Sequence record: OK272487.1
Direction: 5' to 3' (one strand)
DNA length: 48,988 nt
Origin: Escherichia phage JLBYU09
Below, one piece after another: positions 1-48,988 of this stretch. The notes under the pieces are model-generated. The model made no database searches. It was not told where the DNA came from and was given only the letters and a program-made list of their open reading frames with translations. The first letter of the stretch is position 1. Every line of letters begins with the position of its first letter. The position numbers were made by a program, and so were the translations under genes.

Positions 1-1
1 G

Positions 2-712
2 CTATTTTGCGTTTGCTTCGAAGACTGCGCGAGCAAAACCGCGCGGAGTGAGGGAGCGGATCATCTTTGTGCGAGATGATTTTCCGCCAGTTTTGGCCCA
101 GCCTGGATTATCTTTGTCATTCTCTTTCGGCAGGATTAAAGCGCGCTGAGGAATAACAAATCCGTTTCCAGTCCAAAGGCATGTTTTCTTAAAGTAGCGA
201 TCCCGCGCCGGAATAATATCAGGAAAGTCGGGATGTTTATCATCTTCCGGAAGATAGCCAGCATAATCGCACGGATGGAACGTATAATCAGGCTTGCGCC
301 ATAACGTTGACAGCTTGCCTACAGGATTCTCTATCATGTACGGAACGCCGAAATAATCAGCAATTTGCGCCGCTATTTTGCAAGTGTCGGCGGCCTCATC
401 CTGGAAAGAGGGATTCTCAAGGCGTTTTTTGGACCAATGGCGAGATCCGCTATTTGCAAGGTCAGTGCACGGCGGAAATGCCATAATGAAATCAGGCTTG
501 CCCCAATTTTCAAGTTTTGCGGTATATTTGAATAGCTCATCAATCCACACATTAACGTAAAAAATATTATCATGGATTATGCGCACTGATTGGTAATCTC
601 CATGATCTGCATCATCGTAATTAAAGCAAATGCATTTATATCCAGCATCAGCCCAATCTTTAACGGCTTTACCAGATCCATCAAACAAAGAGAATATTAA
701 ACCTTTATACAT
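2..712 (-). CDS. DNA cytosine-5 methyltransferase
   Basis: 236 aa; AdoMet motif I FSLFDGSG, catalytic motif IV AFPPC, motif VI ENP; RBS GAGGTG before the ATG at 712; stop TAG at 2-4 lies inside the conserved box that wraps the window ends. Confidence 0.75.
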   Translation of the reverse strand: MYKGLIFSLFDGSGKAVKDWADAGYKCICFNYDDADHGDYQSVRIIHDNIFYVNVWIDELFKYTAKLENWGKPDFIMAFPPCTDLANSGSRHWSKKRLENPSFQDEAADTCKIAAQIADYFGVPYMIENPVGKLSTLWRKPDYTFHPCDYAGYLPEDDKHPDFPDIIPARDRYFKKTCLWTGNGFVIPQRALILPKENDKDNPGWAKTGGKSSRTKMIRSLTPRGFARAVFEANAK

Positions 713-17248: not shown

Positions 17249-17331
17249 CACAAAATTATGTTGCACGTTTAACAAAAAATGCTATCATTGTGGCGTTACA
17301 TACTAACAGCCTTTATATATGGAGGAAGAAA

Positions 17332-20988: not shown

Positions 20989-21058
20989 TTACTGTACAAT
21001 CATGCTACACGATTCATAATCAATTCTTTTAACAAAAAGTGCTATCAAGGAGAAAGAA

Positions 21059-31820: not shown

Positions 31821-31864
31821 ACTATACACGATCTTGCGGTGGGCGTTTAGCAAAAAGTGCTATT
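31821..31864 (-). promoter_or_regulatory. conserved-box promoter-like element (box variant, 19-nt spacer, TATAGT)
   Basis: Minus-strand AATAGCACTTTTTGCTAAA at 31864-31846; TATAGT at 31826-31821; upstream of the Cor-like gene. Confidence 0.5.
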
Positions 31865-45440: not shown

Positions 45441-45839
45441 ATGAGAAAGTTATCAATAATCGCAATCGCTGTTATTTTGTCTGGATGTTCAAGCGTTATG
45501 CCACTGACCGGATTAATCGGTAGTAAGCCGGAAATCACAGCACAGGCAGGAGCGGAGAACGTAAAGCAGACCGTTGGCGTTACCGCAAAGCAGGACACCA
45601 GCACAAAACAGGAAACTACAATAAATGAATCTGCGGTTGATAAGGTGGACAATTCCAGCAAGAAGGATTTTACTACGTCAACCATTCAGGCTAACACCAT
45701 CAAGGCTGATAAAATCCAGGTCGTGCAAGGTGGGCAAAGGAAGTGGTACGATCCTATAATCTATTGCGCGGCAATTTTTAGTGGTCTTTTGTCAATGCTT
45801 TACTTTTCCTACCGCAAAGGCAACAAAAAGGAGGCTTAA
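45441..45839 (+). CDS. unimolecular spanin (lipoprotein with C-terminal TMD)
   Basis: 132 aa; lipobox LSGC and C-terminal TMD IIYCAAIFSGLLSMLYFSY; matches the recalled T1 gp11 architecture. Confidence 0.65.
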   Translation: MRKLSIIAIAVILSGCSSVMPLTGLIGSKPEITAQAGAENVKQTVGVTAKQDTSTKQETTINESAVDKVDNSSKKDFTTSTIQANTIKADKIQVVQGGQRKWYDPIIYCAAIFSGLLSMLYFSYRKGNKKEA

Positions 45840-45855
45840 CGCCTCCTTTGTTTTA
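45830..45855. terminator. bidirectional rho-independent terminator
   Basis: GGAGGC-ttaac-GCCTCC followed by TTTGTTTTA between convergent blocks; the spanin stop lies in the loop. Confidence 0.55.
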
Positions 45856-45866
45856 TAGTGAATCCA

Positions 45867-46073
45867 TCAAATCTTGAAAGCTGTTTCCGCTATAATCATT
45901 CTCGACAAGAATGTAAGNACNTNTCTTCNTNNNATCNNNNANNNNNNNNTNTNNTCNTAACGATTTATTTCAAACGTGCTACCATCTTCTCTTGTCGCAG
46001 TTCCTTTGTCGTTGAAAACATCAAAAGTTACATTGATGATTTTTGTTTCTTTCTTTGTTACTTTGATAGCCAT
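45867..46073 (-). CDS. hypothetical protein (interrupted by N-run)
   Basis: Track ORF 45867..46088; start moved to ATG 46073 after GAGGA RBS; Ns 45918-45958. Confidence 0.4.
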   Translation of the reverse strand: MAIKVTKKETKIINVTFDVFNDKGTATREDGSTFEINRXXXXXXXXXXXRXXLTFLSRMIIAETAFKI

Positions 46074-46106
46074 TTTTAAAATCCTCATATTCGCTTCGAT
46101 GAAACA

Positions 46107-46151
46107 AATATACCCGATACGAGATCAGGTGTTTTAACAAAAAGTGCTATT
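46107..46151 (-). promoter_or_regulatory. conserved-box promoter-like element (box, 19-nt spacer, TATATT)
   Basis: Minus-strand AATAGCACTTTTTGTTAAAA at 46151-46132; TATATT at 46112-46107. Confidence 0.5.
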
Positions 46152-46260
46152 CAATACGCTTTACAGTAACCAACAAAACTCCGTCCTCATCACACAAATT
46201 ATGCTCTGATATATCAAACGCTCGCATGTCAGAATGAATGAGCGTTAACATTGCGTGCAT
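46147..46260 (-). CDS. small hypothetical protein
   Basis: Internal start of track ORF 46147..46341, chosen to avoid overlap with the upstream gene; stop TAG inside the conserved box. Confidence 0.35.
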   Translation of the reverse strand: MHAMLTLIHSDMRAFDISEHNLCDEDGVLLVTVKRIE

Positions 46261-46267
46261 GAAGTCG

Positions 46268-46660
46268 TCATGTGAGATTGAACTTACGGCGCAGAACTTC
46301 AATATTTTGTCTATTAGCATTTGACGTAAACAATTCTTCATCGCTCATTTCTCCGATCCGTAAAGCATCTCTTACCCATTCGTTTTGCATACCTTCCAGG
46401 CTGTAAAGTTCAAACGAGAAAGGGCGATTTGCTGATCCTTTCTTACACCAGAACTTTCCACCAACTCCATCAAGATAACCAGCGGTCATCATTCTTGCGC
46501 AAAATTCTTTTGAAACGGCACTTGCAAACATCCTCGGAGTAAATCCTGCGGCCCTTGCGAGCCGCTCACATTCTCTGTGCTGAAAGATAAATTTTGCTAT
46601 ATGTTGACGTGTAAACCATTCGAATGACTCACACCATCGATACAGATCCAGAAGAAACAT
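46268..46660 (-). CDS. hypothetical protein
   Basis: 130 aa; co-directional and tightly packed with the large P-loop gene. Confidence 0.5.
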   Translation of the reverse strand: MFLLDLYRWCESFEWFTRQHIAKFIFQHRECERLARAAGFTPRMFASAVSKEFCARMMTAGYLDGVGGKFWCKKGSANRPFSFELYSLEGMQNEWVRDALRIGEMSDEELFTSNANRQNIEVLRRKFNLT

Positions 46661-46662
46661 AA

Positions 46663-48246
46663 TTACCCCAGCAATGTTGGATTTACAAAAACAACGCCAT
46701 TAATCACACAAATATAATTTCTTTCTTCAAGCATCGGCAGCAGTTGCGTTTCCATACGCTTCATTACGCCAGCCTGGCCAACAAACGGCTTAACTTTTCG
46801 TGCAGCCTCATATATGGCGCGCACATTCAAGATCCCCTTGTTAGCCTTACCGTGTCGAGTGATGATCTCGATTAGTTTACCCATTTCAGCATCATCACCA
46901 GCATAGCCAGAAGCGTTGGCGGCGCTAATGTATGTTTTGCTCAACTCGCTAAACATCAGCAGTGCTTCCTGAACGGTTTCAACCTCAATCTCTTTCGACT
47001 TTTGAGGGTATCCGCCAGGATTAAACCAATTGCGGATAGTGTGCAAAACCGAAGCAATCCTGATCACCTGCTTATCCATTTTGCCAAGCGCACCGCGCAG
47101 CATTGTATGCGAATACTTTCCGCCATCGGCAAGGTGCGGTTCCATCTCCTGACGAGCCATGTTAAGAACTCGCATTGCGGATTTGCTGATCTTAAGCTGG
47201 ATGTTCGATTCACTCATGATGTTATGGATCAGCTTGAAATATTGGCTTTTCAGTTCTCCATCAACAGGTTCATAAGTAGAATCACCGTTATCATCAACAA
47301 ACTTTCTACGGCCTAAAAATGATTCCTCACGCACAAGCAAATAACGCTCACTTACACCGATACCGCGCGATCCTGCATCCATGATGGCATTGATTGTTTC
47401 ATCCTGGGCAATTACCGCCATACAGCCAAGAGCTTTAAAACTCATATTGTTGTCAGCGTTTGCGCGAGCTATAGAAACATGACCGTGATCCCATGCTTTT
47501 AATACAAGTTCGCTGTTGGTTTTACGTTCGCTATTGGCATATGTCAGACCTAAAAGGCTGTTAATACTTGTTGCCTCGTCTGAAATCACAGCAAAGTTAC
47601 CCTGGCGATTGTTGATTCTTGCAAGTCCTTCCGGCGTTGTGTCGGACACAGGGAAAACGATGTCACACATCTTTTCCAGTTTTTCTTCCAGATCTTCTTT
47701 CTCCTGGTACAGAGATTCCATATCAGCGCCGGAGCGCTCGCTTTTCATCTCTTTTGCAAGACCTGCCAACTTTGCCTGAATCTTTTTTCTTTCCTTCTTT
47801 CGCTGTTCATTAATTCTTTCCACTTCAGCAACCATAGGAGCAAGTGCCAGGCTGTTAACGGCAGATTTACCAGTTGATGGAGGCTGGCTTGTGACAACGT
47901 AAAGAGCGGTTGGTTGATCCGTTCCGTGATACTCAACCGTGAAGCGTCCAAGCATTGCAGCAGACACGCAGCCGATAAAATGCATATATGCCGATGATTC
48001 AGGGAACTGAACTGATCGAGCAATGTTGCGCGCCAACTTACCAACAACATCAATATCATTGCCAAGAGAAATTACAGGGTAGCGATCGTTTCCGTTATTA
48101 ACATCATTAACCTCACCCCAAAAGCTGGACGATTGACGGTATCCGTTTGCCTGAATGGACACGCGCACAGGAGACAATCCTTGTGCATCAGCTAATTCGA
48201 TAATTTGTTTTGGTGTTAGTTTATTGGTTTCAAACGAAAAATTCAT
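46663..48246 (-). CDS. large P-loop-containing protein (putative replication-associated NTPase)
   Basis: Track ORF 46663..48300; start moved to ATG 48246 (MNFSFETNK) after AAAGGAG RBS; Walker-A-like QPPSTGKSAV; family not identifiable without a search. Confidence 0.45.
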   Translation of the reverse strand: MNFSFETNKLTPKQIIELADAQGLSPVRVSIQANGYRQSSSFWGEVNDVNNGNDRYPVISLGNDIDVVGKLARNIARSVQFPESSAYMHFIGCVSAAMLGRFTVEYHGTDQPTALYVVTSQPPSTGKSAVNSLALAPMVAEVERINEQRKKERKKIQAKLAGLAKEMKSERSGADMESLYQEKEDLEEKLEKMCDIVFPVSDTTPEGLARINNRQGNFAVISDEATSINSLLGLTYANSERKTNSELVLKAWDHGHVSIARANADNNMSFKALGCMAVIAQDETINAIMDAGSRGIGVSERYLLVREESFLGRRKFVDDNGDSTYEPVDGELKSQYFKLIHNIMSESNIQLKISKSAMRVLNMARQEMEPHLADGGKYSHTMLRGALGKMDKQVIRIASVLHTIRNWFNPGGYPQKSKEIEVETVQEALLMFSELSKTYISAANASGYAGDDAEMGKLIEIITRHGKANKGILNVRAIYEAARKVKPFVGQAGVMKRMETQLLPMLEERNYICVINGVVFVNPTLLG

Positions 48247-48273
48247 TGGTGATAACTCCTTTTTGATGCGGCA

Positions 48274-48318
48274 ATAATACCGCACCAATGCTACCCGCAT
48301 TTAACAAAAAATGCTATT
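48274..48318 (-). promoter_or_regulatory. conserved-box promoter-like element (box variant, 19-nt spacer, TATTAT)
   Basis: Minus-strand AATAGCATTTTTTGTTAAAT at 48318-48299; TATTAT at 48279-48274 in the loop of GCGG...CCGC. Confidence 0.5.
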
Positions 48319-48535
48319 TGATCCGCTCTATGCTAACTAAGATTTTTTCTGGTTCCTTTGCACTATGGCAATGCGCGGTTACAGAATCAACAAAATCAAA
48401 GTAAAGTGATTTGTGATATGAGAATCCAATCAGCCACCCAACCATCGTTTTCTTTATTGGCCTGACTATATCGCCAGGCTTAAAGGTTTTTGTTGCCGAA
48501 TAAGTCACCTTATAGCGATATTCAGTCTTGATCAC
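48314..48535 (-). CDS. hypothetical protein
   Basis: 73 aa; overlapping start with the upstream gene. Confidence 0.45.
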   Translation of the reverse strand: MIKTEYRYKVTYSATKTFKPGDIVRPIKKTMVGWLIGFSYHKSLYFDFVDSVTAHCHSAKEPEKILVSIERIK

Positions 48536-48918
48536 TTATACATAGCCTCAAACAAATGACAGCCACCAGCGGAAAATCCTACTTCTTCGCGGTATAGCGT
48601 CCAGCGGTCGCCAGCTTCATCAAAAACATAACCAGCAACAGCACCAAGAGCGCGACCTTGCTCAATCTGGTAACGCTTTCCTTCTTTGAAATGTTTTTTG
48701 CACGGGATCTTGTGATCTACAAAGGTGCATTTAATTGTTTTTGTCTTGATATGACGATAGTCAGACTCAACAGCGTTTTGCCACTTGCTACCCTTTGTAA
48801 TGCTCTTTACCTGGAATTGCTCCAACTCGATCACATCATCGCTACCAGCAATTTTTTCGTATACAACTTTATAACGACCGTTCATCAAAACGTTGGTTTT
48901 ATTGCAGATAACTTTCAT
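48532..48918 (-). CDS. hypothetical protein
   Basis: 128 aa; AAAGGAG RBS; first gene downstream of the box that wraps the window ends. Confidence 0.5.
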   Translation of the reverse strand: MKVICNKTNVLMNGRYKVVYEKIAGSDDVIELEQFQVKSITKGSKWQNAVESDYRHIKTKTIKCTFVDHKIPCKKHFKEGKRYQIEQGRALGAVAGYVFDEAGDRWTLYREEVGFSAGGCHLFEAMYK

Positions 48919-48949: not shown

Positions 48950-48988
48950 ATTATGCCAGGCTTTTACACCTGGCTTTTAACAAAAAGT
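48950..48988 (-). promoter_or_regulatory. conserved-box promoter-like element split across the window ends
   Basis: Minus-strand box AATAGCACTTTTTGTTAAAA spans 6..1 and 48988..48975; spacer is the 6-bp-stem hairpin GCCAGG...CCTGGC; CATAAT at 48955-48950. Confidence 0.5.

Follow-up and report, generated by a model that had tools for sequence, protein, structure and literature searches.

A DUF3987 (MCM-like AAA+) helicase gene in a box-headed leftward gene block of Escherichia phage JLBYU09

Layout of the gene block

The DNA analysed here (the window, 48,988 nucleotides of Escherichia phage JLBYU09, sequence record OK272487.1) covers the whole genome, in circularly permuted form, of a T1-like coliphage (Drexlerviridae, Hanrivervirus) that shares 99% identity with phage JLBYU41. 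T1-like phages are frequent laboratory contaminants and therapy candidates, and to our knowledge nobody has yet dissected the machinery by which they replicate. On the minus strand, between 45853 and 48918, six co-directional ORFs are found, in agreement with an earlier note on this DNA, which had described six leftward genes around a large 527-aa ORF containing QPPSTGKSAV. Read leftwards, the features are as follows.

48976..48988 joined to 1..5 (across the junction), minus strand: box upstream of g1, 18-nt core ATAGCACTTTTTGTTAAA
48532..48918, minus strand: g1, 128 aa, PHROG 2684
48314..48535, minus strand: g2, 73 aa, GTG start, PHROG 12725, overlapping the g1 stop
48300..48317, minus strand: box of the helicase unit, ATAGCATTTTTTGTTAAA
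48263..48288, minus strand: stem-loop (dyad) of about -16.5 kcal/mol, with the -10-like hexamer of the helicase promoter inside it
46663..48246, minus strand: DUF3987 / MCM-like AAA+ helicase, 527 aa (Pfam, PHROG)
47857..47886, minus strand: Walker A motif (P-loop) QPPSTGKSAV, residues 121-130, from conservation
47671..47868, minus strand: charged helical hairpin running on from the Walker A helix, helices 127-167 and 173-192, from DSSP of the model
47572..47595, minus strand: Walker B strand FAVISDEA, residues 218-225, from conservation
47341..47355, minus strand: VSERY, residues 298-302, resembling the MCM SRFD motif, with R301 as candidate arginine finger
46666..46899, minus strand: C-terminal helical linker and winged-helix domain, residues about 450-527
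46268..46660, minus strand: g4, 130 aa, winged-helix protein, starting 2 nt past the helicase stop
46147..46341, minus strand: g5, 64 aa or less, PHROG 9539 (E 3e-23), overlapping the end of g4
46133..46150, minus strand: box upstream of g6
45853..46073, minus strand: g6, about 73 aa in relatives, PHROG 10679, partly N-masked in the window
45827..45849, no strand assigned: bidirectional intrinsic terminator, serving both the leftward block and the lysis cassette, which is read rightwards

The small flanking genes have coupled or overlapping starts, as had been noted: g1 and g2 overlap by GTGA, 2 nt separate the helicase stop from the g4 start, and g4 and g5 overlap. The 527-aa gene likewise lies apart from the primase (37852..38847) and an SF2 helicase (39338..41443), at a distance of 5-8 kb. 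What does not hold is the description of the block as a single operon. Two box promoters had been recognised in this range, and both are present; a third box, however, is located a short way upstream of g1, which makes the block three units, each with a promoter at its head. These units, moreover, close a longer leftward arm at its downstream end; the arm runs across the window ends, which are contiguous, since the stop codon of a methylase gene (2..712) falls within the box upstream of g1. Past the junction, the arm carries this methylase and more boxes at 1832 and 2709. At the other end of the block, a terminator is annotated in phage G29-2 at the place equivalent to 45827..45849. The last gene, formerly placed at 45867..46088, is a frame artefact, because in this region, within an N-masked stretch, the window lacks 1 nt that its relatives have; the protein of the relatives (MAIKVTKKE...DLMDSL) has its equivalent at 45853..46073.

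Box promoters and associated hairpins

Seventeen matches to the box sequence ATAGCAYNNNTTGNTAAA were observed, against 1.3 expected. The box upstream of g1 is followed by a GC-rich dyad (GCCAGG/CCTGGC) and then by the -10-like hexamer CATAAT (48950..48955), that of the helicase unit has TATTAT (48274..48279) 20 nt past the core, and that upstream of g6 precedes a CCTGAT/ATCGGG dyad and then TATATT (46107..46112). The distance from box to -10-like hexamer is fixed at 19-20 nt, with GC-rich dyads associated. The stem at the helicase promoter is kept in 26 distinct relatives whose stem sequences differ, as judged by folding each sequence separately and not by pair counts, the MAFFT alignment of the helicase-upstream regions being out of structural register.

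The box is the 21-nt direct repeat aaATAGCACnnnTTGnTAAAA of phage TLS (PMC11447400), with which it shares its consensus, its orientation with transcription and its location some 70-76 nt before start codons. Similar repeats have been reported in T1, Rtp and Rogue1 (Phage 2024, PMC11447400), and for the TLS repeat a stoperator, an enhancer site and an UP element are considered as possible functions (PMC11447400). New relative to that work are the fixed spacing of 19-20 nt and the GC-rich dyads. A role for the box as a -35 hexamer was rejected, since TTGnTA and the -10 are 21-22 nt apart, and a generic sigma-70 scan missed the box promoters, finding sites no more commonly than in shuffled sequence. 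The box-plus-hairpin promoters are an unexplained and testable transcription signal.

The small genes of the block

Conservation across 80 related loci is uneven: g4 is found in all 80, after the helicase gene, g1 in 79, g5 in 65, g2 in 31 and g6 in 5, the last count being lowered by the masked query. The homologue of g1 lies upstream of the helicase gene, and often its C-terminal half alone aligns; a weak PADLOC match to a DruM cytosine methylase (E about 0.005) was obtained for g1, which is named 'MORN repeat-containing' in one record. The gene g2 is a variable accessory gene. The acidic tail of g4 carries a conserved C-terminal motif, (M/L)SDEELF, at 46328..46345. Alignments of distant relatives of g5 begin at residue 7-9, and translation of g5 may begin at an internal ATG, at 46320; annotators differ on its length.

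Family and motifs of the 527-aa protein

The 527-aa protein is a DUF3987 (MCM-like AAA+) helicase. A Pfam search with the product of 46663-48246, for which DUF3987 had been proposed beforehand as a candidate family, matches that model (PF13148) at E 1.1e-43 and 150.3 bits, against a gathering cut-off of 27, with residues 82-431 aligned to model positions 3-350 of 364. At E 9e-246 it also matches PHROG 2373, "DNA helicase", and its sequence equals that of the "putative helicase" of JLBYU41 (100% identity). The gene is present in 920 GenBank phage records, T1 and TLS among them, and is a core, family-wide gene of the T1-like phages (Drexlerviridae) rather than an orphan NTPase. The description 'unknown function' was overstated: DUF3987 is a family of predicted phage replicative helicases, and databases already give the name 'DNA helicase', as RefSeq does for the T1, TLS and Hanrivervirus orthologues. 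In this regard the finding is real and ordinary, mainly an annotation clean-up. A longer 545-aa start (ATG at 48300) was rejected, as it falls inside the box and homologues are 517-531 aa long.

The P-loop, whose conservation among homologues had been the point at issue for an NTPase assignment, is retained: the lysine of GK(S/T) is invariant, and the family to which the homology points is one of NTPases. Across 59 orthologues Q121, P122, P123, S124, G126, K127 and S128 are invariant, and K127, E224 and R301 remain so in alignments of 22, 59 and 46 sequences, the last at 21-38% identity; D223 is kept in at least 90% of aligned sequences. It had been stated that no helicase motifs were recognisable, yet three conserved ones are there: Walker B (FAVISDE), a SERF arginine motif like that of MCM, and a lid motif, LRGxxGK. 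R301, the putative arginine finger, directly precedes the strand 302-306 in the AF2 model. The charged coiled region that had been pointed out corresponds in the model to residues 127-192, which form a long helical hairpin, and a similar charged region appears in the consensus of distant DUF3987 members.

Predicted fold and relation to MCM proteins

The AF2 model of the monomer is a confident one, with a pLDDT of 89.3 and a pTM of 0.87. In a Foldseek search of the whole PDB, the best 34 matches are all MCM-containing entries, and the model contains an MCM-type AAA+ core in which a pre-sensor-1 hairpin and a candidate SRF arginine finger are seen. When the PDB was searched by sequence, both the protein alone and a broad profile of its family gave coiled-coil noise only, and an NCBIfam scan of five block proteins (g1, g2, g4, g5 and the helicase) matched no models. 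The MCM link therefore depends on the predicted structure and on profile comparisons in the literature, in which DUF3987 proteins are assigned to SF6 as MCM-related putative phage replicative helicases with a C-terminal wHTH (Kazlauskas et al. 2016, PMC4889955).

The protein is an MCM-clade relative and not an MCM proper, since its first 100 residues are helical and form no beta-rich domain, a Pfam scan gave no MCM match and no PDB sequence match was obtained. Its identity to archaeal and eukaryotic MCMs (SF6 AAA+) is 11-19%; unlike them it has an extra helical hairpin past Walker A and does not contain the N-terminal OB-fold/zinc-finger domain. With other DUF3987 helicases (AgaPH of Seonamhaeicola, N4 dns, E. 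coli YfjI-like) it shares the Pfam family, both Walker motifs, a charged helical insert past the P-loop, the small C-terminal winged-helix domain and residence in a mobile element or phage without its own replicative polymerase. It differs from them in standing alone, without PriCT, AEP or DnaG fusion, in the distance of its primase gene, which is not adjacent, and in its short, helical N-terminus; its helicase activity is predicted.

The same structural comparison bears on the suggestion that the block encodes a packaging, defence or anti-defence NTPase, which is highly improbable. The terminase subunits have been identified at other genome sites, replicative MCMs make up the overwhelming share of the structural neighbours, and the phages of this family, in which the gene belongs to the core set, are virulent. 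PADLOC gave no meaningful match, only a coiled-coil one to JetC at E 0.0046 for the helicase, and on this ground a role in defence was discarded. Among the functions that the earlier note had put forward, a role in replication is the best supported, with that of initiator or loader as a possible additional or alternative one, and packaging and defence find no support.

A replicative helicase as the most likely function

The best explanation of the whole is that the 527-aa protein is most likely the phage replicative helicase, assembling into a ring and unwinding DNA at the expense of ATP, and we hold this reading with reasonably good confidence. The proposed motor is of the MCM clade without the MCM N-terminal domain, with the helical hairpin running from the Walker A helix and a winged helix at its end. 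ATP would be hydrolysed at the subunit interfaces of the ring, with K127 of Walker A, D223/E224 of Walker B and, in trans, R301 as the proposed residues, and the ring would translocate on single-stranded DNA to unwind the phage genome. It would work with host DNA polymerase III, with the SSB of the phage and with the zinc-ribbon primase, itself a stand-alone protein; T1-like phages encode no polymerase (for T1 and TLS, see the TLS re-annotation paper). The C-terminal winged helix, g4 or both probably place the helicase on DNA, by recognition of an origin or structure or by recruitment of a partner, and the neighbouring small genes would be early or middle accessory genes, co-transcribed under the three copies of the Drexlerviridae box.

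What the analysis establishes is the family, the fold, the conserved motifs, the synteny and the fusions in relatives, and what it infers is the ring, helicase activity of the 527-aa protein itself, its part in replication and that of g4. Several observations support this reading. The domain fusions of relatives comprise a DnaG zinc ribbon, PriCT-2 and the DnaB N-terminal domain, the primase fusions occurring in distant relatives only. The genome contains one other helicase, the SF2 RadD-like protein, and its primase is without a helicase domain. The N4 member of the family, dns, is essential for replication (Kazlauskas et al. 2016, PMC4889955). Unwinding of DNA with ATP has been shown, among DUF3987 members, for AgaPH only, a PriCT-DUF3987 protein that unwinds DNA 5'->3' in dependence on its Walker A and B motifs and binds its own primase-polymerase (PMC11724360). 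Searches of the literature returned no experiments on T1-like orthologues of the helicase, and nothing usable on T1 amber-mutant genetics, on the host dna genes needed by T1 or on defence-escape mutations in the helicase gene.

Pointing against the replicative reading, besides the outcome of these literature searches, the empty sequence searches of the PDB and NCBIfam and the opposed polarities of MCM and AgaPH, are the primase distance, most DUF3987 systems having a primase adjacent or fused (PMC4889955), the absence of an evident origin nearby and the TLS re-annotation paper, in which the name 'the helicase' of the replication region goes to the SF2 protein and not to the DUF3987 one. An AEP or DnaG primase that is fused or encoded immediately upstream, frequent in DUF3987 systems and not obligatory, is absent here; the primase lies about 8 kb off, behind the lysis cassette. 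A search for iterons and tandem repeats beside the helicase gene gave short chance pairs and the terminator dyad only, and therefore no origin is proposed there.

In a rival reading the fork helicase would be host DnaB or the SF2 RadD-like enzyme, with the 527-aa protein acting as a translocase or helicase in recombination-dependent replication, repair or host-DNA takeover. Recombination genes are indeed abundant in the genome (RecE-like exonuclease, Erf, SSB, VRR-NUC, RadD-like helicase), and MCM8/9 and ComM, recombination proteins, are among the structural neighbours of the 527-aa protein. The fusions in relatives, however, are to primase and DnaB-N modules and not to recombination modules, the helicase gene is universally conserved in the phage family and the published analysis prefers a replicative function (PMC4889955), such that a recombination role is quite improbable.

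A role mainly as an origin-binding initiator or loader, in which the AAA+ protein would remodel DNA or load host DnaB without being the fork helicase itself, finds parallels in Orc1/Cdc6 and DnaC-type AAA+ proteins; it is nonetheless distinctly unlikely. 

The replicative helicase itself is possibly self-loading. Among known systems, the self-loading initiator-helicases of mobile elements (SCCmec Cch, SaPI Rep, P4 alpha) come close to it, although they are weaker structural matches than MCM and no adjacent iteron origin was found at the 527-aa gene. MCM motors move 3'->5'. The polarity of the single tested DUF3987 member, AgaPH, is reported as the opposite, 5'->3' (PMC11724360). In its strongest form, the proposal would make the DUF3987 protein and its obligatory partner g4 a self-loading initiator-helicase that frees these phages from the need for host DnaA, DnaB and DnaC, with a 5'->3' lagging-strand motor of the MCM clade that acts like DnaB; this version is tentative and rather unlikely. 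The combination of an MCM-like motor, bacterial Pol III, a T7-type zinc-ribbon primase and a paired winged-helix protein makes for a tractable system, in which the question of how an AAA+ helicase is loaded without the MCM N-terminal domain can be addressed. If self-loading were true, the box-linked hairpins could be DNA entry sites besides being transcription signals, and the covarying stem around the -10 of the helicase promoter is one example of such a possible entry site.

Identity of the 527-aa protein

The 527-aa product of the third gene in the leftward block is of a kind already recognised and annotated, matching Pfam DUF3987 (MCM-like AAA+; E 1.1e-43, residues 82-431) and, over its full length, PHROG 2373 'DNA helicase' (E 9e-246). 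It shares 100% identity with the 'putative helicase' of Escherichia phage JLBYU41 and 58% with the 'DNA helicase' of T1; a homologue occurs in 920 phage records, and an exhaustive search of representative proteins returned 2409 clusters at E ≤ 1e-3. The earlier note, which had proposed DUF3987 among the families to test, was in its essentials right, with the Walker-A-like QPPSTGKSAV occupying residues 121-130 and a charged segment indeed present. Moreover, Q121, P122, P123, S124, G126, K127 and S128 are invariant in an alignment of 59 orthologues (36-88% identity), so that the lack of GKS conservation which, by that note, would have refuted its reading is not what is found. Also invariant in these orthologues are E224 (FAVISDE), R261, D282/E283 (VIAQDE), R301 (SERF) and R384, G385, G388, K389 and D391 (LRGxxGKxD), while P82, K127, T204, E224, R261, G297, R301 and K389 are invariant across 46 relatives of 21-38% identity. 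The AlphaFold2 model from the 59-sequence alignment (pLDDT 89.3, pTM 0.87) starts with a small N-terminal helical part. In its alpha/beta core the Walker A helix is prolonged as a long helical hairpin (residues 127-192), and a beta-hairpin separates Walker B from the next strand of the core; a lid made of helices and a C-terminal winged helix are also present.

Kazlauskas et al. (NAR 2016, PMC4889955) placed DUF3987 in SF6 as a distant relative of MCM that has a C-terminal wHTH and is often fused to, or encoded beside, an AEP or DnaG primase. In the longer relatives found here the domain is fused to a DnaG CHC2 zinc ribbon, PriCT-2 or a DnaB N-terminal domain. AgaPH, a PriCT-DUF3987 protein, is oligomeric, unwinds 5'-tailed and forked DNA in a manner requiring Walker A and B, and binds its own primase-polymerase (NAR 2025, PMC11724360). 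In the present genome, the primase (37852..38847) has a T7-type zinc ribbon as its only recognisable Pfam domain and lacks a helicase domain, and the other helicase (39338..41443), which adjoins a VRR-NUC nuclease, is SF2 RadD-like. The DUF3987 protein is therefore the sole ring-helicase candidate in the genome, which also encodes Erf, SSB and a RecE-like exonuclease. A DNA polymerase gene is absent from T1 and TLS (PMC11447400).

The 527-aa protein is probably a ring-forming AAA+ helicase, which would unwind phage DNA for host Pol III in cooperation with the primase and SSB of the phage. The analysis itself shows the fold, motifs, synteny and fusions; ring formation, activity, polarity and essentiality are inferred. 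The main rivals, the initiator or loader role put forward in the earlier note and a recombination or repair translocase, are both unlikely, the second slightly more so. The packaging or defence NTPase of that note is very improbable, since the terminase is encoded elsewhere in the genome and the PADLOC matches are weak (coiled-coil JetC for the helicase and DruM methylase for g1, the first gene of the block, each at E about 0.005).

Layout and conservation of the block

Megablast of the region hits 212 phage records in GenBank, of which JLBYU41 is nearest (99.2%) and the Hanrivervirus phages haarsle, aalborv, G29-2 and pSf-1 stand at about 96%; the close relatives are all Drexlerviridae, subfamily Tempevirinae. 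Gene order is that of G29-2. The methyltransferase found upstream of the block in G29-2 sits at 2..712 (-), and a box repeat element crosses the window junction (48976..48988 plus 1..5), from which it follows that the window is a complete T1-like genome in circularly permuted form. The block forms only the downstream end of a leftward arm that extends further. N-masked bases, 126 in all, are scattered over 45910..45960 and 56 other short runs.

Genes of the block in transcription order, with the terminator
48532..48918 (-), g1, 128 aa
48314..48535 (-), g2, 73 aa, GTG start, GTGA overlap with the g1 stop
46663..48246 (-), helicase gene, 527 aa
46268..46660 (-), g4, 130-aa winged-helix protein, start 2 nt past the helicase stop
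46147..46341 (-), g5, overlapping g4
45853..46073 (-), g6, corrected; the relatives' gene MAIKVTKKE...DLMDSL, 73 aa
45827..45849, bidirectional terminator, 3 nt beyond the g6 end

The six co-directional genes with coupled or overlapping starts described earlier are all present. The block end once placed at 45867 is an artefact, in that the masked stretch of g6 is 1 nt short relative to three close relatives, shifting the frame to give a spurious ORF at 45867..46088. No function was predicted for g1, g2, g5 or g6 by Pfam and PHROG, or for the first three by NCBIfam.

The six genes are unevenly conserved. Of 80 IMG/VR loci with a helicase of 63-100% identity, every one has g4 after the helicase gene, immediately adjoining in nearly all, and 79 have g1 before it; g5 occurs in 65, g2 in 31 and g6, for which the query was masked, in 5. 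This invariable linkage, together with the 2-nt spacing in the window, suggests that g4 is a functional partner of the helicase, perhaps an origin/DNA-binding adaptor, loader or regulator. The winged-helix domain of g4 is followed by (M/L)SDEELF (residues 106-111; 46328..46345), a conserved C-terminal motif of acidic and aromatic character that looks like a short docking peptide.

Public records disagree on both g4 (130 aa, 87 aa or unannotated) and g5 (64 aa, 37 aa or unannotated), whose overlap at the g4 3' end reaches 74 nt in a different frame. The start of g5 may be the internal ATG at 46320, since alignments of distant relatives to g5 begin only at residue 7-9.

Box elements and hairpins

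The motif ATAGCAY-NNN-TTGNTAAA occurs 17 times in the window at ≤2 mismatches, against 1.3 expected, a count reached in 0 of 100 shuffles. The repeat itself is already published, as aaATAGCACnnnTTGnTAAAA, with 21 copies in TLS and others in T1, Rtp and Rogue1, no function being assigned there (PMC11447400); what is added here is a fixed -10-like spacing and a structured 36 nt after the box.

Box cores
Plus strand (+): 4864, 6132, 7435, 8802, 13011, 39328, 41846, 42887
Minus strand (-): 1832, 2709, 17268, 21028, 31846, 46133, 48300, 48976

Of 16 copies, 14 have a -10-like hexamer that begins exactly 19-20 nt past the core, which puts the box centre near -41 and leaves no room for a -35 hexamer. 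Folding of the 36 nt after the box averages -10.2 kcal/mol, compared with -4.3 for random window 36-mers (Mann-Whitney p 1.7e-5), a GC-rich dyad usually lying between box and hexamer or around the -10. Often the upstream gene has its TAG stop codon inside the box.

Three copies serve the block, upstream of g1, the helicase gene and g6. In other words, the box promoters of the earlier note stand, three rather than two, and its single operon gives way to three units. At the helicase promoter, a stable stem-loop (48263..48288 (-)) encloses the -10-like hexamer; in most relatives it has -13 to -18 kcal/mol. Pairing of the stem persists across 26 distinct relatives despite differing sequences (for example GGTGCGG/CCGCATC, GTTGCCG/CGGCAAC, GGTTGGCC/GGCCAACC, GGTTCCGG/CCGGAACC and CGGCT/AGCCG), these variants being compensatory changes.

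Copies at 17268..17285, 21028..21045 and 31846..31863 (-) oppose the rightward late/structural genes, the first among the head genes, the next past the major tail gene and the last close to cor/recE; only some have the hexamer at the usual spacing, and they could drive antisense transcription or have another role. Adjoining the primase is a 157-aa protein (38841..39314 (-)) with sub-threshold Pfam and NCBIfam matches to a Cro/YdaS-like HTH, annotated as a transcriptional regulator in relatives; this protein and g4 are candidate box-binding factors.
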